In this document: one piece after another, positions 1 through 61,548 of the stretch | How the letters are laid out: each line of letters opens with the position of its first letter | Numbering within the stretch: position 1 is the first letter of the stretch | Source of the DNA: an uncultured Chitinophaga sp. | GTDB lineage: Bacteria > Bacteroidota > Bacteroidia > Chitinophagales > Chitinophagaceae | Direction of reading: 5' to 3' | DNA: 64,000 nucleotides | NCBI GenBank assembly: GCA_964386395.1 | Contig: CAYLRV010000001.1 | Location: 23,807-87,806, forward strand | Notes under the pieces: model-generated | What the model was told of the DNA's origin: nothing | Databases searched by the model: none | What the model saw: only the letters and a program-made list of their open reading frames with translations | Translations under genes and position numbers: made by a program

Positions 1-260
1 CTAAAAGTCCCTTGCTTAAAGAGACGAAACGGCTGGTAAGGGAAGTATTTGTGCCAGAAAAAAATATGCACCGTATCAGTTTTACACTTCCGCTGATTAA
101 TAAGGCCGCTAATGCAGCCTTCCTCGTTGCAGGTAAGGGCAAGGCTGCCATGCTGCAAACTATTTTGGGGCAAAAGAAAACGCAATTACCCGCAGCGCTG
201 GTTCACCCTGCCGGCAATCTATACTGGTTTCTTGACAAAGACGCTGCTTCACTCCTTTGA
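1..260 (+). CDS. pgl: 6-phosphogluconolactonase, C-terminal fragment (5' end outside window)
   Basis: The frame is open from the window edge to the stop at 258-260. The C-terminus RISFTLPLINKAANAAFLVAGKGKA...HPAGNLYWFLDKDAA resembles the DevB/SOL lactonase tail. Confidence 0.55.
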   Translation, partial: KSPLLKETKRLVREVFVPEKNMHRISFTLPLINKAANAAFLVAGKGKAAMLQTILGQKKTQLPAALVHPAGNLYWFLDKDAASLL

Positions 261-29583: not shown

Positions 29584-31035
29584 TTACTCTCCTACAACCT
29601 CCTCGCTTCCTTTCTTTCGCCAGGATCTATGTTTAGCCCCGTCCATTTTTACAATCTTCGGGGTAAACTTACCGACCACATCCACCAATGCCTTCTGTGA
29701 TTGCATCACAACATTAATATCCTTGTAGGCAAAAGGTGATTCATCCAGTCCGCCACCCAGCAGTTTTACGCCAAACTTATCCAGTTCGTCTTTCATCTGC
29801 TTATCGGTAACAGAAGCGATGGCCCTTGTACGGCTCATCTTCCGTCCGGCACCATGCGAGGCAGAGTTGACAGATGCGGATTCGCCTTTACCTTTTACAA
29901 TAAATCCATCGGCGGTCATTGAGCCCGGTATAATACCCAATACATCTTTACCTGCAGGTGTTGCGCCTTTACGGTGAACGATCACATCCTTACCTTCCCA
30001 TTTTTCTTTCCAGGCAAAATTGTGGTGATTCTCCACCATCTTCACTGGTTTACGTCCCAGTTGCTTCGCAATTTTGGCATGTATTACATGGTGACAGGCG
30101 CTGGCATAATCACCAGCCAGGTTCATTGCATTCCAATACTCTATGCCTTCTTCTTCATCCAGCAAAAGCCAGGCAAGATTTTTTGATTCCTGCGGCAAAC
30201 GCCTTTTGCTGATAGCCAGTTTAGTATAGTGGTTCGCTATGTTAGCACCTAGTGCCCGAGAACCGGAGTGAGTAAGAAAACCAATGTACTTACCAGCTTC
30301 TATACCCAATACCTGATCTTCTTCTGCAATATCCACGACGCCAAATTCGGCGAAGTGGTTACCCGACCCGGATGAACCTAACTGCTTCCACACACGGCCA
30401 TGCAATTTTTTCAGCATCGGTAGTTGAAAAAATAATTCATGCTCCATCACTTCGTGGTTAGCCGCCCGATCGAATTGTGCGCCGCTGCCAAACAATGTAG
30501 CCTCATTGATTTCACGGGCAAAATATGATTCCCGGTCCGTCAGATCTTTTGGGTTGATATCGAATACACTCAGGCACATACGGCATCCGATGTCTACTCC
30601 TACTCCGTAAGGGATAACAGCATTCTCGGTTGCCAGTACGCCACCGATTGGCAATCCATACCCGCTATGTGCATCTGGCATCAAGGCGCCGGCCACACTC
30701 ACCGGCAATTTAGCTGCCTGGTACATCTGGTGCATAGCGCCTTCTTCGATATGTTCCTGTCCAAATACATTAAACTGTATGCCGGTTTGGTTCAGCGAAA
30801 TTTCTGCCCCTTCCGTTTCTTTCTTTGGTATCAGCTGTTCTGCTATCAATGCAAGTACTGCGTCATTGCTGTACTCGATTGGATTGGCCAATACTTTTTG
30901 TAATAGTTCCATCACTTCCTCCTTTCCATGATGCTTATATTTTTTTTGCATCACATCCATTGCTATGCTAATTACCGGTCCTTCCGGGTAGCCAATAGTC
31001 CTTAGTTCTTTTCCTGTTATTTTTAGTTTACTCAT
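29584..31035 (-). CDS. rtcB: RNA 3'-phosphate/2',3'-cyclic-phosphate to 5'-OH ligase RtcB
   Basis: Start at ATG 31035 (MSKLKITG). Diagnostic blocks MPDAHSGYGLPIGGV, GVDIGCRM, GSGNHF, HSGSR, NHHNFA and SASHGAGR. The roughly 90-aa N-terminal extension is not found in E. coli RtcB. Confidence 0.9.
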   Translation of the reverse strand: MSKLKITGKELRTIGYPEGPVISIAMDVMQKKYKHHGKEEVMELLQKVLANPIEYSNDAVLALIAEQLIPKKETEGAEISLNQTGIQFNVFGQEHIEEGAMHQMYQAAKLPVSVAGALMPDAHSGYGLPIGGVLATENAVIPYGVGVDIGCRMCLSVFDINPKDLTDRESYFAREINEATLFGSGAQFDRAANHEVMEHELFFQLPMLKKLHGRVWKQLGSSGSGNHFAEFGVVDIAEEDQVLGIEAGKYIGFLTHSGSRALGANIANHYTKLAISKRRLPQESKNLAWLLLDEEEGIEYWNAMNLAGDYASACHHVIHAKIAKQLGRKPVKMVENHHNFAWKEKWEGKDVIVHRKGATPAGKDVLGIIPGSMTADGFIVKGKGESASVNSASHGAGRKMSRTRAIASVTDKQMKDELDKFGVKLLGGGLDESPFAYKDINVVMQSQKALVDVVGKFTPKIVKMDGAKHRSWRKKGSEEVVGE

Positions 31036-31039
31036 TGTT

Positions 31040-31130
31040 TTGTTTTTTGAAACACGGTGACAGAGAGACAGGGGCGGCACAGTGTTTTTCGGTGTTGCCC
31101 TGTGTCGTTATGCCTTTGTGGTTCTATTTT
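31040..31130. repeat. GAACCACRRAG-type repeat arm (family shared with the GxxExxY cassette flanks)
   Basis: The reverse complement reads gaaccacaaaggcataacgacacagggcaac.... Compare gaaccacggagacacaaggacaggg at 38937. Confidence 0.45.
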
Positions 31131-31429: not shown

Positions 31430-32527
31430 TTATTTACTTACCAAAATCTGCTTCAACTGCTCTAATAGCTGACCGTTACCGCCTACGCTGATATTGCTGA
31501 TTTTGTCGGCAATTTTCTCCACGTATTCCATTTCCTTCAGCTTCCAAAGCATGGCATTTTCTTCCATCAGTTTGGCTGTGTTCAGCAGGCTACGGGTGCT
31601 GGCAGTTTCTTCACGACGCATAATGGTGTTGGCCTGCGCCTTCTTTTCTGCCACCAGTACCTGGTTCATAATCTCTTTCATATCACCTGGCAGTATGATA
31701 TCACGAATACCAAAACCATTCACCGCAACACCCAATGCTTCTGCTTTTCCTTTCACACTTTGCAGGATAAAAGGAGCAATGGCTTCCTTCTTTTCCAGCA
31801 ATTCATCAAAGCCGAATCCGGCAATGTATTCACGCAGGGCCAGTTGCAGCGCCACGTACAGTTGCTTATCGTATTCTTTGTTCAGCACCATAGCTATTTC
31901 AAGGTCTGTTACGTTGTACTGTGACCAGGCATTGATACGCAATGCAGCCTTATCACGGGTCAGTATTTCCTGACCGTTGATTTCCAGTTGTTGCTGACGC
32001 ATATCTGCTTTCGCTACATGGATAGTGATACTGTTCTTCCACCAATAGTAGGTACCTGCATCCAGTTGCTTTACAAACTTACCATCTATGAACAACACCG
32101 CTTTCTCATAGCTTTGCACCTCGTAGTTACGCACCCAGTTGCTCACCGGTGCTTTTACCAGTACGGCACGGTCGATAGCCGTATCGATTTCAACCTGGCT
32201 GATATCAGCCCGAACGAAATCATTTTGCACAACAGATTTCCAGAATGCATAACGGCCGGCCGCCAGCACCTGCTTCAACAGGCCATTTTCGTATTGCAAC
32301 ACTATTTCTGTGTCTTTCACTTCCACTACCTGCAGTATAGCAGCCAGCTCCTTGTCCTGCAACAGGATGTTTAGTTCTACCGGTGCAGTGAATTGTTTGG
32401 TAATATCATAGATATATACCTGTTCGTTTTTCCAGAACCAGTAATTACCAGTCAGCAGCAGGCGCTTGTAGGCGCCATCTTTGAACACCAAACCAACCTG
32501 CCATGCGTTAATTTTTACTTTTTTCAT
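31430..32527 (-). CDS. SPFH/band-7 (slipin-like) domain protein with a duplicated N-terminal beta-rich region
   Basis: Start at ATG 32527 (MKKVKINAWQVGLVFKDG). C-terminal SPFH-type block IRDIILPGDMKEIMNQVLVAEKKAQANTIMRREETA. The N-terminal half contains two similar YWFWKN / YYWWKN segments. Confidence 0.7.
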   Translation of the reverse strand: MKKVKINAWQVGLVFKDGAYKRLLLTGNYWFWKNEQVYIYDITKQFTAPVELNILLQDKELAAILQVVEVKDTEIVLQYENGLLKQVLAAGRYAFWKSVVQNDFVRADISQVEIDTAIDRAVLVKAPVSNWVRNYEVQSYEKAVLFIDGKFVKQLDAGTYYWWKNSITIHVAKADMRQQQLEINGQEILTRDKAALRINAWSQYNVTDLEIAMVLNKEYDKQLYVALQLALREYIAGFGFDELLEKKEAIAPFILQSVKGKAEALGVAVNGFGIRDIILPGDMKEIMNQVLVAEKKAQANTIMRREETASTRSLLNTAKLMEENAMLWKLKEMEYVEKIADKISNISVGGNGQLLEQLKQILVSK

Positions 32528-32839
32528 TTTACTTGTTTTGCCCGTCAATAAACATTTATTTACTGTCAGCATGATTAATTAAAATAAAGCCGTGCTTGCC
32601 GCCACCAGTTACTACGGAATGAGATTAATACAACCCAGTTTCGTACAGTTCTTCACTCCCTCATCAGCTATACGTATATAACAAACTATGAGTGACGAAG
32701 TATAGTCAACTTCATTATACGCTTCTTATTTCGGGTAGCTGCCCGGCTGTATTGGTACAGGCTGCTTTAGCGTCCCGACCAATTACAGGCAACAAACCCG
32801 GCTTTTATCGGTCACCATTTTTTGAGAAGTGGTGTACTT

Positions 32840-33163: not shown

Positions 33164-34240
33164 TTAATTCATCAATGTCTCCGGCAGGCGAAACCCAATT
33201 ATCTCGGTCTGCTTTACTTCCTGCTGCTTTTCATGCGGGTTGGCGATCTCCGCTATTGTCATCGGACCGGTTATTGTTTTATCATATCCCAAATGTTCGC
33301 TTAGCCGCTGCGCTTTTTCTTTACTGAGCTTTCCGAATTCATAACGGGCTATCAACCTTCCTTTCCGCAACAGGGCACTGTCAATGGCTGTCAGTGAACT
33401 GTTGAATGTGCATATCAATTGCACATTCAGGAAGTCGGCCAGCAGACCATCTGATATATTCAGCAGGTTACTCACCGCTGAACTGCTGTTTTGCTTCCTG
33501 TCCATGATAATATTCTCGGCATCTTCAATTATCAAGACTGTATTCGGGTTATTGATCAGCAGTTCGATAAACTCAGGGTTCATCAGGTTTCCCGCTACCG
33601 ATGGTGAAAGGAATAAAACCCTTTTCTTTACCTTACCCACCAGGTACCGTAAATAGGTTGTCTTTCCTGTACCCGGTAAACCATGCAGCAGTACAATACC
33701 TTTGTCATTCTTTTGCCTGAGCCTTTTTTGTATGACCGTATCCACATCTTTAAAATCGTCTTCGTAAAAAAGTCCCAGATCCAGCTTTGTCCGTTTTATT
33801 TCCATCGCCCGCAGATCCATCGAATTCCGGCTTTGCACAATCAGGTTGATCTCCAATGGCTGCCGGCGTTGCCTTTCTTTAAACTGAAGGGCAATGGCAA
33901 CAATCGCTTTTACCAGTTCCCCGTCACTGCCATCGTGGAGTATTTCGCAATAGTCATCCTCCAGCTCCACAATACAGTTTTGTTGCAACACAATAAGCGT
34001 TTTATCAAACTGAAATTTCTTCTTTTTACGCTTGTACCAGGTCGTCCGATGAATGTTCTTTATTGATTGCGCAAATTTCTCCTGCAATACAGCAAACACC
34101 TTCTCCCCTTCCACATCGCTGATAAAATTGATGTTTGGCAGTGCGTTAAAACTGTACAGGTACAACATCTTTGCGTCCAGGAAAGAGTCGCCAAACACAT
34201 TGTTTGCGTTTATAACTTTCTGACTGTATAGATTTTCCAT
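33164..34240 (-). CDS. AAA+ ATPase (classical AAA clade, Bcs1-like architecture) with an uncharacterised N-terminal domain
   Basis: Walker A HGLPGTGKTT, Walker B VLIIEDAE, second region of homology with RKGRL. The N-terminal roughly 190 aa carry no recognisable motifs. Confidence 0.8.
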   Translation of the reverse strand: MENLYSQKVINANNVFGDSFLDAKMLYLYSFNALPNINFISDVEGEKVFAVLQEKFAQSIKNIHRTTWYKRKKKKFQFDKTLIVLQQNCIVELEDDYCEILHDGSDGELVKAIVAIALQFKERQRRQPLEINLIVQSRNSMDLRAMEIKRTKLDLGLFYEDDFKDVDTVIQKRLRQKNDKGIVLLHGLPGTGKTTYLRYLVGKVKKRVLFLSPSVAGNLMNPEFIELLINNPNTVLIIEDAENIIMDRKQNSSSAVSNLLNISDGLLADFLNVQLICTFNSSLTAIDSALLRKGRLIARYEFGKLSKEKAQRLSEHLGYDKTITGPMTIAEIANPHEKQQEVKQTEIIGFRLPETLMN

Positions 34241-34341: not shown

Positions 34342-34848
34342 TTACTGTACCACTTTATTTGCACAGCTGGAGCTGGCAAAAGCTTCCGGTTTAGCCTTGA
34401 AAGCAAAACCCCTGCCTGTCCGGCAGGCAGGCATTCCCATGATATAGCCCATAGCTTCCTTCAGGGCATCGTTACTTTTAAAGTTTGGGTTGGTGTTGAT
34501 GTCCGCATGCACTTCCATATCCACACTGTAGCGGCTGAATATGTTGCACAGTGCATAGGCTACTTCGATACTTTTCTGTACTTCCATCAACATCCGTTCT
34601 TTAATCGTCATACGCTGGCGGGTTGTTTCATTATGGATATACATGAAACCACCTTTCCCTTTCCGGATGAATACGATTACCGTGGCAAACTCAGTCACCC
34701 TGGCTTTCACCTGGCTATCGGTACCAATGCAGACTTTCAATTCATGTCCATTCTCTTTTTCCTGCATCAATACACGGCTTACCTCTTCCGCAATCGGGAT
34801 TTGAATCCGTTCACCGGTCAATTTTCTCCATTGTTGTTCCTGTTCCAT
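34342..34848 (-). CDS. YkuK/DUF458-family RNase-H-like protein
   Basis: 168 aa. KVCIGTDSQ, FATVIVFIRKGKGGF and KPEAFASS resemble the DUF458 family. Carries the 21-nt palindrome in frame at 34411-34431. The start codon lies 30 nt downstream (minus sense) of the last tRNA-like element. Confidence 0.55.
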   Translation of the reverse strand: MEQEQQWRKLTGERIQIPIAEEVSRVLMQEKENGHELKVCIGTDSQVKARVTEFATVIVFIRKGKGGFMYIHNETTRQRMTIKERMLMEVQKSIEVAYALCNIFSRYSVDMEVHADINTNPNFKSNDALKEAMGYIMGMPACRTGRGFAFKAKPEAFASSSCANKVVQ

Positions 34849-34877
34849 TGTTTTTGTTTTTCAATGTTGTGCTGCAT

Positions 34878-34943
34878 AAGTACAAGGATTCGATCCACCT
34901 CCGGTGGATTGTAAGCCATTATGCTACCGTTACATCATACTTG
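34878..34943 (-). ncRNA. Degenerate tRNA-like element A (66 nt)
   Basis: Acceptor-like pairing AAGTATG/TGTACTT plus A73. The interior has a CTTACAA loop-like segment, the hairpin TCCACC-GGA-GGTGGA, and TCGAATCC, but no canonical T-stem. Confidence 0.3.
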
Positions 34944-34950
34944 CTTTTGT

Positions 34951-35022
34951 GGACAAAACAGGATTCGAACCTGTACTGCTGCGGCTTCAACGCAGTGCTC
35001 TGCCATTGGAGCTATTTGTCCT
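34951..35022 (-). tRNA. tRNA-Phe(GAA)
   Basis: GGACAAA TA GCTC-CAATGGCA-GAGC A CTGCG-TTGAAGC-CGCAG CAGT ACAGG-TTCGAAT-CCTGT TTTGTCC A. A fully canonical cloverleaf with no encoded CCA. Confidence 0.9.
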
Positions 35023-35116
35023 TTTGTTTGTACCTGCACTGGCTGATCTTTTACACTTCATCACCGAATTGTGTTGCACAAACTCTGTCTTCCCGCCATA
35101 GCGGAATTATCATTGC

Positions 35117-35204
35117 GGAGAGTAAAGGATTCGAACCTTTGTACCGTTGTGAACGACAGCCCAAGCTTAGCAGGCTGGCACATTACCACTCTGTCAACCC
35201 TCCT
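35117..35204 (-). tRNA. tRNA-Ser(GCU), class II
   Basis: GGAGGGT TG ACA-GAGTGGTAA-TGT G CCAGC-CTGCTAA-GCTTG, long variable arm GTCGTT-CAC-AACGGT, AAAGG-TTCGAAT-CCTTT ACTCTCC G. There is one C.U mismatch in the anticodon stem. Confidence 0.75.
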
Positions 35205-35208
35205 TTGT

Positions 35209-35292
35209 GTGATTAATAAGATTCGAACTTATTCAGCCCGAAGGCAACGGTTTTACAGACCGTTACGACTCTCCGTCTTCGTCGTACTCACC
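35209..35292 (-). tRNA. tRNA-Tyr(GUA), class II
   Basis: GTGAGTA CG ACGA-AGACGGAGAG-TCGT A ACGGT-CTGTAAA-ACCGT, variable arm GCC-TTCG-GGC, ATAAG-TTCGAAT-CTTAT TAATCAC A. Has C8 instead of U8 and one G.A mismatch in the acceptor. Confidence 0.8.
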
Positions 35293-35303
35293 AAAATTTC
35301 AGC

Positions 35304-35380
35304 GGATGAAGAAAGGGTCGAACTTTCAACCATCGGCTTAACATCCGCCACTGGCGGACTGCCATTGAGCTATTCATCCA
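35304..35380 (-). ncRNA. tRNA-like element E (perfect acceptor and T-arm, non-canonical core)
   Basis: GGATGAA TA GCTC AATGGCAG [TCCGCC-AGT-GGCGGA] TGTTAAGCCGATGGTT GAAAG-TTCGACC-CTTTC TTCATCC G. It has no D-stem partner and no 5-bp stem with a 7-nt anticodon loop. ATGTTAA could be a GUU (Asn) loop only with a poor stem. Confidence 0.4.
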
Positions 35381-35384
35381 TTGT

Positions 35385-35458
35385 TGTCCCGGTGAGATTC
35401 GAACTCACAACCCCCCGGTTAAAAGCCGGGTACATCTTCCAGTTGAGCTACGAGACAT
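35385..35458 (-). tRNA. tRNA-Lys(UUU) with a weak D-stem
   Basis: TGTCTCG TA GCTC-AACTGGAA-GATG TA CCCGG-CTTTTAA-CCGGG GGGTT GTGAG-TTCGAAT-CTCAC CGGGACA A. U1-A72 pair. Only 2 of 4 D-stem pairs form. Confidence 0.65.
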
Positions 35459-35464
35459 TTTTGT

Positions 35465-35556
35465 TGCGGCTACCGGATTCACTGTCTGCCGACAGGCAGG
35501 GAACCAGTAACTCCTGCCATGTAAAAACAGCTTTCTCCCATTGAATTAAGCCGCAC
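35465..35556 (-). tRNA. tRNA-Val(UAC)-like with a 20-nt T-loop insertion
   Basis: TGCGGCT TA ATTC-AATGGGA-GAAA G CTGTT-TTTACAT-GGCAG GAGTT ACTGG-TTC[CCTGCCTGTCGGCAGACAGT]GAAT-CCGGT AGCCGCA A. The insertion occupies plus 35482-35501. Confidence 0.6.
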
Positions 35557-35573
35557 TGCTTCATAAGGTTTGT

Positions 35574-35645
35574 GATGGTTGACAGATTCGAACTGTCAGC
35601 CGCTATCGTATCAGGATAGTACTCTGCCATTGAGTTAAACCATCA
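35574..35645 (-). tRNA. tRNA-Ile(GAU)
   Basis: GATGGTT TA ACTC-AATGGCA-GAGT A CTATC-CTGATAC-GATAG CGGCT GACAG-TTCGAAT-CTGTC AACCATC A. Canonical cloverleaf. Confidence 0.9.
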
Positions 35646-35649
35646 TTGT

Positions 35650-35721
35650 TGCGGCTGCCAGATTCGAACCAGCATTTGAAGCTTATGAGACTTCTGAGTT
35701 AGCCATTACGCTAAACCGCAA
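35650..35721 (-). tRNA. tRNA with CAU anticodon (Met or Ile2; cannot be distinguished here)
   Basis: TGCGGTT TA GCGT-AATGGCTA-ACTC A GAAGT-CTCATAA-GCTTC AAAT GCTGG-TTCGAAT-CTGGC AGCCGCA A. One D-stem mismatch and a G.U-rich T-stem. Confidence 0.7.
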
Positions 35722-35730
35722 TTAATATGT

Positions 35731-35804
35731 AAGCCTGGTGAGAATCGAACTCACACTACATGGCTTCTAAGGCCATTGCCTCTCCCAATTGGGCTACAAG
35801 CTTA
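35731..35804 (-). tRNA. tRNA with Leu anticodon UAG on a class I (short variable loop) body
   Basis: AAGCTTG TA GCCC-AATTGGGAG-AGGC A ATGGC-CTTAGAA-GCCAT GTAGT GTGAG-TTCGATT-CTCAC CAGGCTT A. Confidence 0.7.
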
Positions 35805-35814
35805 TTTCATTTGT

Positions 35815-35887
35815 CGGCCAGACTGGATTCGAACCAGTAACCTTTTGCGTATAAGGCAACTGCTCACACCGTTGAGCTACAGGCCGC
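35815..35887 (-). tRNA. tRNA-Ile(UAU)
   Basis: CGGCCTG TA GCTC-AACGGTGT-GAGC A GTTGC-CTTATAC-GCAAA AGGTT ACTGG-TTCGAAT-CCAGT CTGGCCG A. One U.U mismatch in the acceptor. Confidence 0.8.
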
Positions 35888-35895
35888 TTGTTTGC

Positions 35896-35988
35896 TGACT
35901 CAGAAAGATTCCCTGCCAGTCGGCAGACAGGGAACTTTCATCTCCTCATTCGTAGTGAGGTGTTCTTCTCCATTGAACTATAAGTCAT
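35896..35988 (-). tRNA. tRNA-Arg(ACG) with a 20-nt T-loop insertion
   Basis: TGACTTA TA GTTC-AATGGAGAA-GAAC A CCTCA-CTACGAA-TGAGG AGAT GAAAG-TTC[CCTGTCTGCCGACTGGCAGG]GAAT-CTTTC TGAGTCA G. The insertion occupies plus 35913-35932. All four stems are otherwise good. Confidence 0.7.
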
Positions 35989-35993
35989 CATTG

Positions 35994-36110
35994 TACGGCT
36001 TCAGGAATTCCTGCCTGGCCGGCAGCCAGGGAACCTCTGCAACGATCACCTGCTATTTTCCTCTCAGAAAGAAAGGGAGGTGATTATGTTTCCATTACAA
36101 CAAGCCGTAT
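35994..36110 (-). tRNA. Aberrant tRNA-like gene (possible Gln-CUG) with a T-loop insertion and an elongated anticodon arm
   Basis: Acceptor ACGGCTT/AAGCCGT (or TACGGCT/AGCCGTA). Outer stem CACCT/AGGTG encloses CCC TTTCT-TTCTGAG-AGGAA AATAGC. T-loop TTC[CCTGGCTGCCGGCCAGGCAG]GAAT (insertion at plus 36012-36031). The T-stem is weak. Confidence 0.4.
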
Positions 36111-36113
36111 TGG

Positions 36114-36186
36114 GTGCACTGCGGGGCTCGAACCCTGTTCTCCCGATGCACAGTCGGGCACTTTACCAAATAAGCTACAGCCACCA
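36114..36186 (-). tRNA. tRNA-His(GUG) with encoded G-1
   Basis: G(-1) GTGGCTG TA GCTT-ATTTGGTA-AAGT G CCCGA-CTGTGCA-TCGGG AGAA CAGGG-TTCGAGC-CCC.. CAGTGCAC C. G-1 lies opposite C73. The 3' acceptor strand has TG where C is expected, giving a 1x2 internal loop. Confidence 0.7.
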
Positions 36187-36191
36187 TCTGT

Positions 36192-36283
36192 TACCCGGCT
36201 CAGACTCCCTGTCTGCTGACAGGCAGGGAACTGAGAATACCAGACTCAAATTCTGGTGTGTTGCCAATTACACCACCCGGTAA
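36192..36283 (-). tRNA. tRNA-Gln(UUG) with a 20-nt T-loop insertion
   Basis: TACCGGG TG GTGT-AATTGGCA-ACAC A CCAGA-ATTTGAG-TCTGG TATT CTCAG-TTC[CCTGCCTGTCAGCAGACAGG]GAGT-CTGAG CCGGGTA A. The insertion occupies plus 36209-36228. Confidence 0.7.
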
Positions 36284-36287
36284 TCGT

Positions 36288-36335
36288 GCAGCATGAGTGA
36301 ATCCCTGTCTGCAGACTGGAAGTGAACATGCAGCC
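36288..36335 (-). ncRNA. Acceptor-stem-like hairpin enclosing a short copy of the palindrome, flanked by AGTGAA direct repeats
   Basis: gcagcatg (36289-36296) pairs with catgcagc (36328-36335) with one mismatch. The interior is agtgaa-tccctgtctgcagactgg-aagtgaa. The 3' side is followed by CGAT, like the CAAT trailers of the array. Confidence 0.3.
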
Positions 36336-36455
36336 TTCCGCCGCGGCGGATATCCGGCCAATCGAAATGCTCCTATATTTTGCTCAAAGAACTTTTGGAA
36401 AAGCATCCCCGCTGCACCTGCGGGGAGCTTTGTCCCTCCTTCTGCACATAATCTG

Positions 36456-36593
36456 TTAACGCAGTTCATATTCTGCAGGGTGACGAACTTTGCAGTTGGT
36501 CATTCCTTTGTGATGAACATTGCTTTTATTTTCTTTCTTTATCAGCACTTTCACTATAAAGTGAATGGCCAGTACTATCAGTAAAAATTTCAT
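36456..36593 (-). CDS. Small hydrophobic peptide (45 aa), possibly a leader or toxin-like ORF
   Basis: MKFLLIVLAIHFIVKVLIKKENKSNVHHKGMTNCKVRHPAEYELR. The ATG at 36593 is preceded by GAAAGGAGGTAGCT, a strong SD-like AGGAGG that is unusual for this genome. Confidence 0.35.
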   Translation of the reverse strand: MKFLLIVLAIHFIVKVLIKKENKSNVHHKGMTNCKVRHPAEYELR

Positions 36594-36712
36594 AGCTACC
36601 TCCTTTCTATTAACTGCATTTTTTATTTCCGCACTCTTCACCAATTGATTTCCTAACACTTCAACGACGGGAAATCTTTGTGGCAACCCACCTTCGCCAA
36701 AGCTTCGGTGGG

Positions 36713-36749
36713 TAAATAAAAAAACCCGGTCGTTTTTAGCGACCGGGTT
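36713..36749 (-). terminator. Rho-independent terminator (minus strand)
   Basis: aacccggtcg-tttttag-cgaccgggtt hairpin (36723-36749). In minus sense it is followed by TTTTTTTATTT. Confidence 0.75.
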
Positions 36750-37080
36750 TCCTGGCAAGCACAATTGTACTTACCTATGGATTGTCCGGTCGCCGATGGT
36801 GATCATTCTCATTACCTATGGGCACAATACTCCTGTTCGCTTGCGCAGAGCAATAGCATATGGCTGATAGTTGATCATTCATCGTTTGACTAAATCGTTT
36901 ATGTCGTAATAGTTTCAGCATTCTTTATTTTTCGGTTACAATAGATTCAAAACTTTTCCGATTACATAACTATTTTTCTTGTCCACTTACACTGAAGCTT
37001 GGGATTATCGCTTTCGCTTGCGCTGTGGGTAACACTTCTTCGCCGGCGGGTAACCCACCTTCGCTAAAGCTACGGTGGGT

Positions 37081-37109
37081 AAATAAAAAGCCCCGACGTT
37101 TGCCGGGGC
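37081..37109 (-). terminator. Rho-independent terminator after the Dabb gene (minus strand)
   Basis: gccccg-acgtttgc-cggggc hairpin. In minus sense it is followed by TTTTTATTT. Confidence 0.7.
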
Positions 37110-37331
37110 CTGTATTTCATTGAATTCGTTAGTATAACTTATCCTGGCAAAATACATGCCCCACAAACAGTGTAGTCTCCCTTGGGACTAAACCAATTCG
37201 CTGATTCAATATGTAATTTTATGCGTAGCATGTTTTTGTTTTGCAGTGCAAAGATGAATTTATTTTTTTGATGTTGCCAAATTTTTCTTGAAGAATTTTT
37301 AAAAATTATTTTTTTGCGCACAATTCCTATT

Positions 37332-37800: not shown

Positions 37801-38910
37801 TCAAAACAACCTCCCCTGCCCGCCCGGTACCTGGAACTTACTCCTGTCAAGGCTCCATTCCTCCGCATTCATGCCGTATAGCTTACCGTATTTTTTATAC
37901 TGCATCGCTACCATCTCTGCGATATTCCCTTCGCCACGCATGCGTACGCCCCATCGGGTATCATTTACTTTTCCATCGTGGCTTTGTTCGATCAGGTGCC
38001 ACACTTTATCTGCCCTGTCGGGAAAGTTCTTATATAACCAGTCGTGAAATAGAAATTTTATCGCCCCGTTGAGCCGTATGAATGTATACGCTGTAAAGGT
38101 TGCGCCGTTGTCCTTCGCTGCTTTCATGATACGCTGCATTTCATGTTCATTCAGGCCCGGTATCATCGGCCCCATCATGATGCCCATCCGTACTCCTGCG
38201 CTGCTTAACTCGTTTATCACTTTCAGTTTTTGCTTAGCTGTGGTGGTGCGTGGCTCCATTGCCCTTCGCAGATCTTCATTGAAGGATGTAATGGATACCA
38301 TGGCTGACACAATCTGTTTCTTGCCCATTTCCTGCAGCACATCCTTGTCCTTCAGTATCCAGGAGTTTTTGGTGAGTATACCTACCGGCTGGTTAAATTC
38401 ATTGCAGACTTCCAGTAATCCTCTCGTCAGCCGGTATTTTTGTTCGGCAGGCTGGTAGCAATCGGTATTGCCACTGAGCATGATCGGCGTGGCATCCCAA
38501 TCCTTTTTCATCAGGAATTTTCGCAGCAGTTGTGGTGCATTTTTCTTGACAATTATTTTTCGCTCAAAATCCAGCCCGGCACTGTAACCCCAGTATTCAT
38601 GCACATTTCTTGCATAGCAATAGATGCAGCCATGCTCGCACCCGGCATACGGGTTCATGCTGTACATCATTCCCACATCCCTGCTCTCTACTTTGTTTAC
38701 GATGGTTTTTGATTCCTGTTCCATGTAAATAGTTGGCACATTTGATTCTTCCCAGTCGTCAATGCCTTCAATGTGCTCTCTTGTTGTTTCATTTTTTAAA
38801 AACCGGTTCTTTGTATTGAACTGGGCACCGCGACCGGCGAGGTAGGGCTTTGTTTCTTCAGGTTGCTTCACTTCTACTTTGAAATGATCTTGTTGCAAAT
38901 CCTTGCTCAT
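37801..38910 (-). CDS. Radical SAM protein (PA0069 / SplB-like COG1533 family)
   Basis: CxxxCxxC cluster motif in AGCEHGCIYCYARN. The length and remaining sequence fit the PA0069-type family. Confidence 0.75.
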   Translation of the reverse strand: MSKDLQQDHFKVEVKQPEETKPYLAGRGAQFNTKNRFLKNETTREHIEGIDDWEESNVPTIYMEQESKTIVNKVESRDVGMMYSMNPYAGCEHGCIYCYARNVHEYWGYSAGLDFERKIIVKKNAPQLLRKFLMKKDWDATPIMLSGNTDCYQPAEQKYRLTRGLLEVCNEFNQPVGILTKNSWILKDKDVLQEMGKKQIVSAMVSITSFNEDLRRAMEPRTTTAKQKLKVINELSSAGVRMGIMMGPMIPGLNEHEMQRIMKAAKDNGATFTAYTFIRLNGAIKFLFHDWLYKNFPDRADKVWHLIEQSHDGKVNDTRWGVRMRGEGNIAEMVAMQYKKYGKLYGMNAEEWSLDRSKFQVPGGQGRLF

Positions 38911-38929
38911 GCAATTGTTTTAAATAGTG

Positions 38930-39482
38930 ATTATTTTGAACCACGGAGACACAAGGACAGGGAGATGCACAGATATACACATACTGCCGGGAGACAGTCA
39001 CGGTGAGCTGGCGACAGGGAGAAGCACAAAAGCCGTGCTTATTTTTAAAGAATCATCCTTTTAATGCCATCTTTCATAAGCGGTGCGTGAAAATTTAATA
39101 CATAGCCAAGCCGCTTTTGTGTAAGGCGCAGGTAACTTAATAGCTGGGCATCCCAAACGGGATGATAGTTATCCTGCGCTTTCAATTCAACAATTATTAA
39201 ATTGTCAATCAATATATCAATCCGAAGACCATCACTAATGATCAATTTATCGTATACCAGTTCTACATTTTTTTGAACAACAAACGGAATATCCCTTTTG
39301 GTCAATTCATAACAGAAGCATTTTTCATACACACTTTCAATTAAGCCCGGACCGAGAAACCTATGGATCTTTATAGCAATATCCATTATTTGATATGTCA
39401 GCCATATTTCCCTTTCGGTTAAAGGTTTATGCTTTTTTTCTGTGCCGCTCCGTGCCGTCATGCCGCTGTGGTTCAAAATATA
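38930..39482. mobile_element. GxxExxY gene cassette bounded by GAACCAC...GTGGTTC inverted repeats
   Basis: Left arm gaaccacggagacacaaggacaggg (about 38937). Right arm ...ccgtcatgccgctgtggttc (about 39455-39474). The gene sits between them. Confidence 0.5.
39045..39461 (-). CDS. GxxExxY protein (PD-(D/E)XK-like family)
   Basis: Eponymous motif GPGLIESVYEKC (G-x-x-E-x-x-Y). The likely start is ATG 39461. Confidence 0.8.
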   Translation of the reverse strand: MTARSGTEKKHKPLTEREIWLTYQIMDIAIKIHRFLGPGLIESVYEKCFCYELTKRDIPFVVQKNVELVYDKLIISDGLRIDILIDNLIIVELKAQDNYHPVWDAQLLSYLRLTQKRLGYVLNFHAPLMKDGIKRMIL

Positions 39483-39483
39483 A

Positions 39484-40095
39484 TCAGAATAACTCCCCCT
39501 GCTTCGTTGCAACCGGCAGGTTCTGGAATTGGAATGTTGCTGCAATACGATATTTCATTTCCCCCACCGGCCGTTTGAGCAAAGTCATGCCATCAGCAAT
39601 AAACCGACCGGTAAAATGCTTTTGACTATACTCCAGCCAGCCCTTTTCATACTGCCAGGGCTTTAATTTCCGGGCAATGGTCAGGTGGGGCTCCATGATA
39701 AAATGCGGTTTATTATCCTCGTTCAGTTTCATCAGGCGCTGGCTTTCTGTACGGATGCTTTTTACCAGGCCTTGTACCGGTAATTTGCTGGTTACATTGA
39801 TATAAATAGTATGCGCCGGAAAACTGCCAAAATCTTTCAGCTCCACTTTAAATGGCGGGAAGCCCATGGCCACATTCCGCAGCCGGTTTAGTATCCGTTC
39901 TTCCAGCATGGCATGCTGCACAAAATTGACCAGCGTAATATGCGGCTTGCCCCATCTTGCATGATCCGATTTGTACGCAGTAGCAAAATCCTCCTTCACT
40001 TTCATTATCCTTTTCCATAGCTCTTCGTGCGGACTAAGCACCAATAAGTACTCATATTCCCGGTAGCCCGGGATCGTGTTGATAATACTTTCCAT
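39484..40095 (-). CDS. 2H-phosphoesterase superfamily protein (LigT / ThpR-like 2'-5' RNA ligase family)
   Basis: Two HxT motifs at the expected spacing: KPHITLVNF and EPHLTIARK. Confidence 0.7.
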   Translation of the reverse strand: MESIINTIPGYREYEYLLVLSPHEELWKRIMKVKEDFATAYKSDHARWGKPHITLVNFVQHAMLEERILNRLRNVAMGFPPFKVELKDFGSFPAHTIYINVTSKLPVQGLVKSIRTESQRLMKLNEDNKPHFIMEPHLTIARKLKPWQYEKGWLEYSQKHFTGRFIADGMTLLKRPVGEMKYRIAATFQFQNLPVATKQGELF

Positions 40096-40685: not shown

Positions 40686-41371
40686 AAACCCGGCGGGGTT
40701 CGCTTACTAATAAAATTAATTTGTATGGATATTCAACCGATAATCGAAGGCCAGTACTTCCATATTTACAATCGTGGTGTAAACAGCGAAGATATTTTTA
40801 AAGAAAAAAAGAATTACTACTATTTTCTTAAACAGTACAGCTTTTATTGCAATACGGTACTGGATACACTGGCGTATTGCTTATTGAAAAATCATTTTCA
40901 TTTACTCGTGTATGTCAAAGAAAATGTGGAAGTACCCCGCACTGACGGAAAAGAAGGCAGCTTTCGTCTGCATGCATCCAAACAACTGGGGCATTTTTTC
41001 AACTCCTACGCCCAATCCATCAATAAGGCCTATAAACGTACGGGACAACTTTTCGAATCCCCGTTTGAAAGAAAACTGGTGGACGATGAAAGTTATATGA
41101 TGTCCCTGATCTATTACTGTAATCAAAACGCCGTACATCATGGCTTCGTTAAGAGCACAAATGACTGGGAATTTTCTTCCTACCACGCTGTAATAAAAAA
41201 CGATAAAAGCCTTGTGGCTGTAGACCAGGTACTAAAGCGATTTGGCGATATTCAGCGATTTAAAGAAGCGCATACAACTAATAGCATAAAAGAAAAAGAG
41301 CAACAATATATTATAGACTATTAATCACTCTCCTATTTTAAACTACCGTCGGGGCCTACAGCCGCCGACGG
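40672..41371 (+). mobile_element. Y1-transposase-like cassette inserted between umuD and umuC, bounded by a 13-bp inverted repeat
   Basis: accccgtcggcgg (about 40669-40681, overlapping the umuD stop) versus ccgccgacggagt (41362-41374). 12 of 13 positions are complementary. Confidence 0.5.
40725..41324 (+). CDS. IS200/RAYT-like Y1 (HUH) transposase-family protein
   Basis: YFHIYNRG, the HUH-like NHFHLLV motif, and the C-terminal tyrosine helix LIYYCNQNAVHHGFV. Confidence 0.65.
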   Translation: MDIQPIIEGQYFHIYNRGVNSEDIFKEKKNYYYFLKQYSFYCNTVLDTLAYCLLKNHFHLLVYVKENVEVPRTDGKEGSFRLHASKQLGHFFNSYAQSINKAYKRTGQLFESPFERKLVDDESYMMSLIYYCNQNAVHHGFVKSTNDWEFSSYHAVIKNDKSLVAVDQVLKRFGDIQRFKEAHTTNSIKEKEQQYIIDY

Positions 41372-60972: not shown

Positions 60973-61548
60973 CTATATTAATACAACTTCCAGCAATCCG
61001 CACTTCTTTCCAAACGCATAATCCCTGCCGCTGCTATACAAATAATCTTCGGGCTTGAGTACTATCCATGCTTCCACAGGATTATTATGAATATAGTTCA
61101 GCTTTTGTACAGTAAACCCTGAACTAAAAAGCTCTTTTGGCTGATTATCTTGCCTCCAGAACTGGTAGTTACTATTCCGGCTGTTGCACTCTCCCGCTTT
61201 TCTAAATATTTCCAGCATCCATTCCCTCCTGCTTTCTTTTTTATTTTCCTGTATAGCTTTTATAATTTTTTTACTGGTAAACTTCTTAAAGTCCCTTAAT
61301 ATCTCACTTGTATCATTGCTTTTGGCCGCCACTACCATATGGATATGGTTGCTCATCAAGCACCATGCATATAACACCAATCCCTTTTCTGCCTGGCAAT
61401 ACCTGATACTTTCCAGCACGATGTCCCTGTATTCCTTTCTTGTAAACACGTCCACCCATTCGACTACGGCAAATGTTATAAAATGAATACCTTCTTTGTT
61501 TCGTATTTTATAACCTCCGTCATTGATATTTTCATCCGTTTGCTTCAT
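60973..61548 (-). CDS. REP-associated tyrosine transposase (RAYT) / IS200-like Y1 transposase-family protein
   Basis: IHFITFAVVEW, the HUH motif NHIHMVV, and the tyrosine helix YIHNNPVEAWIV. Confidence 0.7.
   Translation of the reverse strand: MKQTDENINDGGYKIRNKEGIHFITFAVVEWVDVFTRKEYRDIVLESIRYCQAEKGLVLYAWCLMSNHIHMVVAAKSNDTSEILRDFKKFTSKKIIKAIQENKKESRREWMLEIFRKAGECNSRNSNYQFWRQDNQPKELFSSGFTVQKLNYIHNNPVEAWIVLKPEDYLYSSGRDYAFGKKCGLLEVVLI

Follow-up and report, generated by a model that had tools for sequence, protein, structure and literature searches.

A tRNA-Gln-derived gene without a conserved anticodon and a palindromic T-loop repeat in an accessory tRNA array of Chitinophaga

The accessory tRNA array of an uncultured Chitinophaga sp. 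contains a tRNA-like unit, here called X, whose anticodon arm is rebuilt into a two-tier structure of about 40 nt and whose T-loop is split by a 20–21-nt GC-rich palindrome that we call PAL (consensus CCTGCCTGCCGGCAGGCAGG). Both were studied in a 64-kb window of this genome (all coordinates are window positions, and L followed by a number labels the comparison loci that we fetched). X is best described as a conserved, structured, non-decoding tRNA mimic without a conserved anticodon, and we hold with moderate confidence that it is a Gln-derived gene on which PAL, a mobile palindrome, has been superimposed, leaving the window copy probably crippled. The two oddities have separate origins and are not features of one RNA: The remodelled arm is an old and conserved trait of the X family, while the T-loop palindrome is the recent insertion of a repeat that most X homologues lack and that many unrelated genes contain. 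The original prediction for this unit had offered a decoy, a regulatory RNA or a pseudogene, a choice that we judge to bracket the answer.

The X gene and its remodelled anticodon arm

We confirmed a 117-nt unit on the minus strand at 36110..35994; the gene proper, which includes the discriminator, is listed with all other features in Table 1. Read downward from 36109, its 5' part is TACGGCT-TG-TTGT-AATGGAA-ACAT-A-ATCACCT-C-CCTTTC-TTTCT-GAGAGG-AAAATAGC, followed by AGGTGAT-CGTT-GCAGAGG-TTC-[CCTGGCTGCCGGCCAGGCAG]-GAAT-TCCTGA-AGCCGTA-C down to 35993. That this is a tRNA-like unit, as had been proposed, is borne out by its acceptor stem, its D-arm, a non-random fold and homologues at the same array position. 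The 7-bp acceptor stem (TACGGCT/AGCCGTA) is free of mismatches and the D-arm (TTGT-AATGGAA-ACAT) has the GG of G18 and G19, both as in a canonical tRNA. The minimum-free-energy (MFE) structure includes the acceptor stem as well as the outer stem and inner hairpin of the anticodon arm and reaches -44.7 kcal/mol (z = -3.4, with none of 200 shuffles equally stable), a fold beyond chance. Two other canonical features are absent from the window copy. Instead of a 5-bp anticodon stem with a 7-nt loop, U33 and a conserved anticodon, it has a 40-nt arm, and in place of a T-arm with a 5-bp stem and a TTCRANY loop, which PAL-free homologues possess, it has a reduced stem and a loop split by PAL. A weak T-stem and a palindrome in the T-loop had indeed been foreseen: Three of the five pairs are left, PAL follows TTC, and the window copy is the sequence left unpaired at T-stem alignment columns 70-89 and 74-85, with the PAL hairpin formed in place of the T-arm in its MFE fold. 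Window X is called neither by ARAGORN in default mode nor by the Rfam tRNA model (RF00005, E <= 10), not even after removal of the T-loop insert. Intact homologues are missed as well: ARAGORN in default mode finds none, and the L122 copy has no RF00005 match at E <= 1. At permissive thresholds, no Rfam family matched X.

Homologues found by nhmmer in L112, L121, L122 (= L123, L126), L124, L166 and L167 (= L168-171) bring the number of distinct X sequences to seven, the window included. They came from a scan of metagenome contigs for the inner-arm motif, from a genome scan and from independent retrieval via the neighbouring ykuK gene; L166 and L167 were retrieved through this protein gene without any RNA motif. 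Every homologue sits between tRNA-His(gtg) and tRNA-Arg(acg) in Chitinophagaceae-type arrays, so the search for relatives suggested with the original prediction finds the unit conserved at one array position. Across the seven sequences, the helices of X hold standard pairs in 95% of cells, as compared with about 40% when partners are slid by one to three columns, and ten pairs are changed on both sides (four in the acceptor stem, three in the outer "anticodon" stem and three in the T-stem), compensatory changes that back all three stems. The five PAL-free copies all have perfect cloverleaf arms and an ordinary uninterrupted T-loop (TTCGAAT, TTCAATT or TTCAACT, as in the arm TTCAG-TTCGAAT-CTGAA).

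The grossly extended anticodon arm is real, as is its outer stem, which compensatory changes support, though with 7 bp rather than the 5 bp (CACCT/AGGTG) first drawn. Its inner part folds differently from what had been proposed. The 5-bp stem TTTCT/AGGAA with the loop TTCTGAG differs from the MFE structure, forms pairs in 91% of cells and breaks in precisely the two homologues retrieved without the motif (L166 and L167), whereas the alternative 6-bp hairpin is the MFE structure and its helix (CCUUUC/GARAGG) is paired in 100% of cells; neither candidate shows true covariation among the seven sequences. Folding and covariance thus uphold the tRNA-like body and the outer stem but not the inner stem and loop of the earlier model. 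The anticodon CUG read from that loop is not conserved, being CCG in L167, and the other suggestion, a 19-nt intron in the anticodon loop, fares no better: There is no bulge-helix-bulge (BHB) motif, and ARAGORN with introns allowed takes homologues for Glu(ttc), Ala(agc), Gly(tcc) and Val(aac), each with another "intron". It is because no consistent anticodon or intron model was found that we describe X as a non-decoding mimic. A reading of the outer stem (AUCACCU/AGGUGAU) as an anti-Shine-Dalgarno:Shine-Dalgarno duplex was dropped, given that the resemblance is not kept in homologues.

With the inner module masked, the best alignment partner of window X is tRNA-Gln(ttg) from the same array, at a score of 22.5 against at most 8.5 for other members; the two have in common the D-arm, the variable region TGTT and the outer stem up to its fifth pair. 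This match, far above that to any other member, identifies X as a paralogue of the array tRNA-Gln with its anticodon loop replaced. In the scenario that we favour, tRNA-Gln(UUG) of the array would have been duplicated and the 7-nt anticodon loop of one copy exchanged for a module of about 28 nt, comprising two extra pairs, an asymmetric internal loop and a hairpin of 6 bp with a 5-nt loop. Since intact copies keep the acceptor stem, D-arm, variable region and T-arm, RNase P and RNase Z would be expected to release the resulting RNA from the array transcript along with its neighbours. In a stress/RNA-repair cluster, this RNA might be a decoy or sensor for enzymes that target the anticodon arms of tRNAs, or their substrate. 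Judging from gene context, it most likely acts as a tRNA mimic for the surrounding cluster of LigT, radical SAM, YkuK, AAA, Band_7 and RtcB, a role that we propose with low certainty. Array tRNAs have long been suspected of non-translational roles, and X would be a concrete candidate for these in the stress/RNA-repair arrays of Bacteroidota. The window copy itself is probably inactive or hypomorphic because PAL destroys its T-loop, its T-stem has decayed and such damage is confined to PAL-bearing copies: Damaged helices occur in both X copies with PAL (three of five T-stem pairs left in the window, three acceptor mispairs in L112) and in none of the five without (Fisher p = 0.048, our own calculation).

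Our literature search found no description of a comparably extended anticodon arm. Like tRNA-Sec, tRNA-Pyl and allo-tRNA (PMC7609411), X departs from the 7/5 arm rules while retaining the elements of the L-shape, but the anticodon stem of known natural tRNAs is lengthened by at most one pair and their 7-nt loop is kept, whereas the arm of X measures 40 nt and lacks an anticodon loop. Bacterial Y RNAs (YrlA, PMC4201824) also combine a non-coding RNA, a tRNA-like module and a place in an RNA-repair cluster next to rtcB, but the 5' and 3' ends of YrlA form a Ro-binding stem, whereas X keeps a true acceptor stem and is altered in the anticodon arm only. No Ro60/Rsr (TROVE) match was found among the scanned open reading frames (ORFs) of the window, and the lone Rfam match to YrlA (19 bits against a gathering threshold of 69) lies away from X. 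X therefore resembles Y RNAs only in idea, as a tRNA-like RNA beside rtcB.

PAL, a palindromic repeat in tRNA genes and beyond

In the T-loop of X, PAL sits precisely between positions 56 and 57 (TTC/GAAT). Only the window and L112 carry this insert, and it is lacking in five of the seven distinct X sequences. Besides X, four T-loops of the window array hold PAL, those of Gln, Arg, Val and a Pro/Gly chimera. In-silico deletion of 20 nt restores TTCGAAT, whereupon ARAGORN calls Gln(ttg), Arg(acg) and Val(tac); PAL thus hides tRNA genes from standard finders, three of which are missed in the window alone. Orthologous tRNAs in related arrays have or lack PAL independently, and some bear it in the D-loop or D-arm instead. 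Elsewhere in the window, no copy was found beyond 34.4-36.4 kb, and all copies within that interval lie inside genes.

A scan for GTTC-CCTGNCTGNCNNCNGNCAGN-GA across one genome per species returned at least 120 loci, against about four expected by chance (our own calculation, 19 fixed bases in 1.2e12 positions), in Bacteroidota, Patescibacteria, Bdellovibrionales, Elusimicrobia, Omnitrophota, Planctomycetes and Proteobacteria. Phage contigs and at least seven bacterial phyla thus have nearly the same palindrome, and it targets the T-loop motif GGTTC/GAWTCC, the most highly conserved motif of DNA in biology; we judge this cross-phylum T-loop palindrome more surprising than X. Perfect CCTGCCTGCCGGCAGGCAGG makes up 113 of the 176 non-redundant copies, and the commonest variants have linked changes at positions 5 and 12, or in mirror image at 9 and 16, which retain a 6-bp hairpin CCTGNC-NNNN-GN'CAGG with a 4-nt CCTG/CAGG tail; both orientations occur. 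PAL is 20 nt long in 188 of 194 copies and 21 nt in the other six, three of which lie in ORFs. Removal of PAL leaves a complete tRNA in 20 of 175 cases, the remaining 155 copies being in fragments or chimeras, and PAL is also found in D-loops, variable loops and phage intergenic DNA. Our literature search found neither a paper containing the PAL sequence nor a description of a palindromic T-loop insert.

PAL is therefore a repeat with presence/absence polymorphism that occurs in T-loops at TTC/GA and in ORFs. By its distribution, it behaves as mobile DNA and not as a tRNA feature because it is absent from five of the seven X sequences yet present in four other T-loops, in ykuK and in at least 120 loci. 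In ykuK, a 21-nt copy adds the residues PACRTGR where homologues read GM/GF, and database homologues have PACRSGR, PACRAGR or LACRAGR at the same site and SACPAGR or PAYRTGR at a second site; a viral ORF carries two in-frame 21-nt copies. Given that they are 21 nt long, in frame and diverging as amino acids, the copies in ORFs seem to be translated rather than removed, and those in ykuK would drift as protein. A frameshift test of 20-nt copies in ORFs gave no usable signal, with spurious ORFs abounding in GC-rich viral contigs. The same GM/GF codon boundary of ykuK is struck by three inserts in different genomes (PACRTGR, ARPDDPVGR and PVRPGHPGG), which suggests a structural insertion hot spot for several palindrome families.

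Apart from adding peptides to proteins, PAL creates arrays of tRNA 3' fragments. Across many phyla (L001-L120; for example L074 38-306, L117 1-330, L034 90-230, L086 and L030), it lies in a tRNA 3' fragment that runs from the anticodon loop or T-stem to the 3' end (T-arm and acceptor 3' strand), mostly right behind an intact copy of that tRNA on its downstream side and sometimes in tandem with an 80-81-nt period. These fragment arrays look like a permuted piece [57..76 + spacer + k..56] inserted just 5' of PAL. In IMG/VR contigs (L127-L161), the perfect 20-nt palindrome occurs in 35 viral-contig stretches, mostly intergenic and often between short imperfect direct repeats such as TTGCGGA/PAL/TTGCGGA in L145, which hints at target duplication at non-tRNA sites.

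As for its movement, PAL inserts into DNA between T-loop positions 56 and 57 without target duplication, and it may spread as single-stranded hairpin DNA into exposed loops of tRNA genes by a route like that of repetitive extragenic palindromes (REPs) or IS200. It would prefer single-stranded tRNA loops, above all the palindromic TTCGAA of the T-loop, and where it lands in protein genes, only in-frame 21-nt versions would survive and be translated. Like REPs with their RAYT transposases, PAL is a short, imperfect palindrome that has many copies, runs in both orientations and is polymorphic for its presence; it also shows a 4-nt motif before the hairpin (CCTG + CCTGNC..GN'CAGG) and no target duplication at the T-loop, and two Y1/RAYT-like genes are present in the window. 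But REPs are restricted to a species, lie outside genes, abound genome-wide and have a GTAG head, whereas PAL is near-identical across phyla, lies inside genes, is confined to the array island in the window and flanks no RAYT-like gene. PAL hence works like a REP or a Rickettsia palindromic element (RPE), yet three traits keep it from being counted as a REP, namely its genomic distribution, its head motif and the lack of a RAYT gene flanked by it. RPEs are small palindromic repeats of 100-150 bp found in one genus only. Like them, PAL inserts in frame into protein genes, seems to be translated and drifts, but it is 20-21 nt long, crosses phyla and strongly prefers T-loops. Mitochondrial GC clusters are likewise small palindromic repeats that insert into genes (PMC4478555).

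One of the two Y1/RAYT-like genes (40725-41324) lies between umuD-like and DinB/umuC-like genes, in the order seen in L172-174, and is flanked by inverted CCGTCGGCGG / CCGCCGACGG, which is unlike PAL. It is a candidate that could mobilise palindromes in general. In an all-against-all clustering of 1,601 ORFs from 126 loci, no protein family was found next to PAL in more than eight loci, and housekeeping families headed the list. The idea that PAL represents the joined ends of a larger transposon was rejected: A search for half-sites found only eight, all of them degenerate palindromes.

Other inserts occur alongside PAL. A second palindrome family is TCCGCC..GGCGGA. At 35344-35358, it takes the place of the 5' anticodon stem in a tRNA-Asn-like unit (35303-35379) that is miscalled as Thr-agt, and at 36337-36350, it stands where the anticodon arm would be in a fusion of the 5' part of a tRNA-Pro with a 3' fragment of a tRNA-Gly (36375-36288). 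It also breaks Asp and Lys genes in L121 and is present in tRNA loci of the Candidate Phyla Radiation (L007, L061 and L085). A third palindrome, TCCCGAT..ATCGGGA (L112 3640-3660, L020 ~4345-4365, L124 1875-1895 and L017 ~4440-4460), lies at the T-loop TTC/GA site or replaces inner parts of array tRNAs, and inserts of about 60 nt (GAAATGTAGCGAAGCGAAATTC...) split the T-loops of Leu in L121 and of an Arg-like unit in L112.

Weighing the alternatives

Several observations weigh against a superimposed mobile palindrome and a functional X family. No transposase is tied to PAL: No copy flanks either Y1/RAYT-like gene of the window, and no Y1 transposase or RAYT gene was found beside PAL in the phage loci or in all other loci searched. 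Nor does the remainder of the 64-kb window contain the scattered copies expected of a classical REP. The function proposed for X is read from its gene context, and the inner 22 nt of its arm are invariant in five homologues by ascertainment, these having been found with that motif. The PAL-bearing Gln, Arg and Val genes otherwise have intact cloverleaves, and PAL occurs in the apparent sole copy at the locus of Arg-CCG (L025 and L110) and Leu-UAA (L070), which would be odd if it simply killed the gene. Finally, RtcB and a 2H phosphoesterase are conserved neighbours of the array, which fits a splicing or repair model.

Such a model, which we consider unlikely, would have PAL and perhaps the arm module of X cut from the RNA by an endonuclease and the exons resealed by the co-located RtcB, at position 56/57 in the case of PAL. 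It would account for the canonical T-loop and callable Gln, Arg and Val tRNAs produced by exact in-silico excision, for the conservation of RtcB, LigT and the RNase H-like YkuK beside the array, for the sole-copy tRNAs and for hairpin pairing kept via linked double changes at positions 5:12 or 9:16. However, inspection by hand revealed no BHB or bulge-helix-loop (BHL) motif in either insert, the T-loop junctions facing each other on a continuous helix and the arm having a 1 x 8 loop. Among about 60 window ORFs scanned against Pfam, none matched EndA-like or tRNA_int_endo families. PAL copies in ORFs, being 21 nt long, in frame and diverging as amino acids, point to translation, 155 of 175 copies lie in tRNA fragments or chimeras, PAL-bearing X copies have decayed, and PAL is found in either orientation as well as between genes of phages. 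Furthermore, no neighbouring gene is common to more than 8 of 126 loci, and X homologues offer no consistent spliced anticodon. Archaeal non-canonical tRNA introns are short inserts, also in the T-arm, that are cut at a bulge-helix-bulge and joined by RtcB. PAL resembles these introns (reviewed in PMC6379350 and PMC3400036) as a short insert at a non-canonical position whose exact removal restores a tRNA and that has an RtcB gene nearby; it differs from them in lacking a BHB or BHL and an EndA match in the scanned ORFs, in its bacterial host and in its presence in translated ORFs and phage spacers. In a broader form, PAL hairpins in T- and D-loops would be true intervening sequences, excised by an endonuclease and resealed by RtcB, that form a mobile mini-intron across phyla with the X module perhaps as a second substrate. 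We regard this as rather improbable; if true, it would mean a bacterial protein-catalysed tRNA splicing pathway with a mobile "mini-intron", and the PAL system provides a clean test of whether bacteria excise short tRNA inserts with RtcB.

It is similarly improbable that the whole unit is a decayed, functionless tRNA pseudogene and that the X family reflects shared ancestry only. The window array does hold other broken units (the Pro/Gly chimera and the Asn gene with its anticodon stem replaced by another palindrome), X is missing from the related arrays L017, L020, L162 and L172-176, and some Anabaena L-array genes are pseudogenes (PMC8421152). But the double compensatory changes in three helices across seven sequences and the perfect arms of the five PAL-free copies indicate purifying selection on the fold of X.

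The notion that PAL is kept in the mature RNA as an "expansion segment" at the tRNA elbow, either tolerated or used as a protein-binding handle, is still more doubtful. PAL is found at both elbow loops (T-loop and D-loop) of the same tRNAs, and the insertion sites at T-loop 56/57 and in the D-loop adjoin in three dimensions; its sequence is conserved across phyla, and the Gln, Arg and Val genes that bear it are otherwise intact. Yet a long hairpin takes the place of the T-arm in the MFE fold, fragments account for most copies, with others in ORFs and phage spacers, and an insertion between C56 and R57 would break the T-loop motif and the G19:C56 / R57 stacking. A working tRNA-Gln(CUG) with its anticodon about 5 bp further from the elbow, as the literal reading of the original prediction would have it, is hardly credible in spite of a Gln-like body with U1:A72 and a 7-nt loop UUCUGAG that can be drawn in the window, given that this loop and stem are neither conserved nor MFE, that CUG becomes CCG in L167, that natural tRNAs lengthen the anticodon stem by at most one pair and that the distance between anticodon and CCA is fixed on the ribosome and cannot be bridged with an arm of about 40 nt.

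The array and its gene neighbourhood

Table 1. Features of X, PAL and the surrounding genes in the 64-kb window
Feature	Position	Strand	Evidence
X gene, tRNA-Gln-derived tRNA-like	35993..36109	-	Sequence, fold z, nhmmer homologues, covariation, best match = array tRNA-Gln
X acceptor stem	36109-36103 with 36000-35994; discriminator C at 35993	-	Sequence
Remodelled anticodon arm	36045..36084	-	Outer-stem double-sided changes, inner helix pairing, MFE structures
Outer 7-bp stem ATCACCT/AGGTGAT	36084-36078 with 36051-36045	-	3 pairs changed on both sides
Inner hairpin CCUUUC-UUUCU-GAGAGG (6 bp, 5-nt loop)	36076-36060	-	MFE in both folds
Asymmetric internal loop, 1 nt vs 8 nt (AAAAUAGC)	within 36045..36084	-	Sequence and folds
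Degenerate T-arm region GCAGAGG-TTC-[PAL]-GAAT-TCCTGA	36001..36040	-	3/5 T-stem pairs left
PAL copy in X, CCTGGCTGCCGGCCAGGCAG[G], 20-21 nt, boundary ambiguous by one G	36010..36030		Between TTC and GAAT
PAL in tRNA-Gln(ttg) T-loop	36208..36227		Removal gives ARAGORN call
PAL in tRNA-Arg(acg) T-loop	35912..35931		Orthologue L020 has PAL; L121, L122 without
PAL in tRNA-Val(tac) T-loop	35481..35500		L121 orthologue without PAL
Degenerate PAL in T-loop of Pro/Gly chimeric pseudo-tRNA	36304..36323		Sequence and comparison with Pro, Gly of other arrays
21-nt PAL in ykuK (PF04308) frame, encodes PACRTGR	34411..34431		Homologues without it or diverged at site
Accessory L-type tRNA array, ~19 units	34875..36375	-	ARAGORN, Rfam, PAL removal
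YkuK / RNase H-like (PF04308), directly downstream of array	34342..34848	-	Pfam E = 2e-34; syntenic in all related loci
AAA ATPase	33164-34240		Conserved cluster
Band_7	31430-32572		Conserved cluster
RtcB RNA ligase	29584..31080	-	Pfam E = 3e-81
Upstream cluster genes (radical SAM, GxxExxY/PDDEXK_3, LigT)	37801..40095	-	Pfam and synteny in L172-174, L176
PA0069-family radical SAM	37801-38910	-	
GxxExxY/PDDEXK_3	39045-39545	-	
LigT/2H phosphoesterase	39484-40095	-	
HUH/Y1 transposase-like gene, RAYT-like	40725..41324	+	NCBIfam REP_Tyr_transpos E = 5e-12, below curated cut-off; JGI names homologues RayT
Second Y1 (IS200-like) transposase-family gene	60973..61548	-	Pfam Y1_Tnp 35.9 bits vs cut-off 23; HUH motif common with 40725-41324

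The window is a stretch of Bacteroidota chromosome and not a phage, as seen from sorting domains of the type IX secretion system and from housekeeping and ordinary metabolic genes. A phage origin of the array was tried and rejected, near and distant DNA searches against INPHARED having returned generic tRNA matches only. ARAGORN calls seven tRNAs in the array and Rfam more, rising to 13 once PAL is removed. Long accessory tRNA arrays of this kind (L-arrays) are reported from seven phyla, Bacteroidetes among them, and have a co-regulated rtcB in their vicinity (PMC8421152). The array of the window fits their definition in being long, dense, on one strand and close to RNA-processing genes such as rtcB. 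It is like the Anabaena trn operon (Santamaria-Gomez et al. 2021, PMC8421152) as a dense same-strand array of about 20 tRNAs with rtcB alongside and some non-functional members. Unlike those arrays, it is flanked by YkuK, AAA, Band_7, radical SAM and LigT genes rather than by the HNH gene of cyanobacterial arrays, and term searches of PMC8421152 found neither a member with a rebuilt arm nor T-loop palindromes. The array is hence of a known kind, and X and PAL appear to be novel forms of kinds already known.

In related contigs, the recurring order is umuD-like, RAYT-like, DinB-like / LigT, (GxxExxY), PA0069-family radical SAM, two regions resembling small RNAs (sRNAs), a small ORF with a hairpin, the tRNA array, YkuK, AAA ATPase, Band_7 and RtcB. 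Among the fetched loci, L172-174 and L176 have radical SAM and LigT upstream, and L162-171, L175 and L176 have YkuK and then AAA, Band_7 and/or RtcB downstream, with the order YkuK, AAA, Band_7, RtcB recurring in L167-171, L175 and L176. The small ORF (MKFLLIVLAIHF..., about 45 aa), followed by the conserved hairpin GTGCAGAAGGAGG...CCCCGC..GCGGGGA..TTTT, is at 36398-36593 on the minus strand directly upstream of the first array unit and is kept in all related arrays L112, L121, L122, L124, L162 and L166; it may be a leader or attenuator. Further upstream on this strand, two conserved non-coding stretches of about 150-200 nt (36720-36900 and 37090-37290) each end in a terminator-like hairpin and are common to L121, L122, L162 and L166. 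As no match to an Rfam family exceeds threshold, we list both as candidate sRNAs of the island. The hairpin ACCCACC-(GTAGCTTTAGCGAAG)-GGTGGGT is repeated, at 36686-36713 and 37053-37080, and a similar motif, GTAGCTT[T/C]AGCGAAG, accompanies tRNA fragments in L002, a locus of Patescibacteria, and in L115.

Two tRNAs stand out by their anticodons. The related array L020 encodes at 3761-3834 a Glu-like tRNA with anticodon UCA (called by ARAGORN as selenocysteine, "SeC tca"), possibly an opal suppressor. Bacteria usually read AUA by a lysidine-modified CAU tRNA, so that a tRNA-Ile with a genomic UAU anticodon is unusual; the window array has one at 35813-35886 (minus strand) in addition to Met(cat) and Ile(gat).

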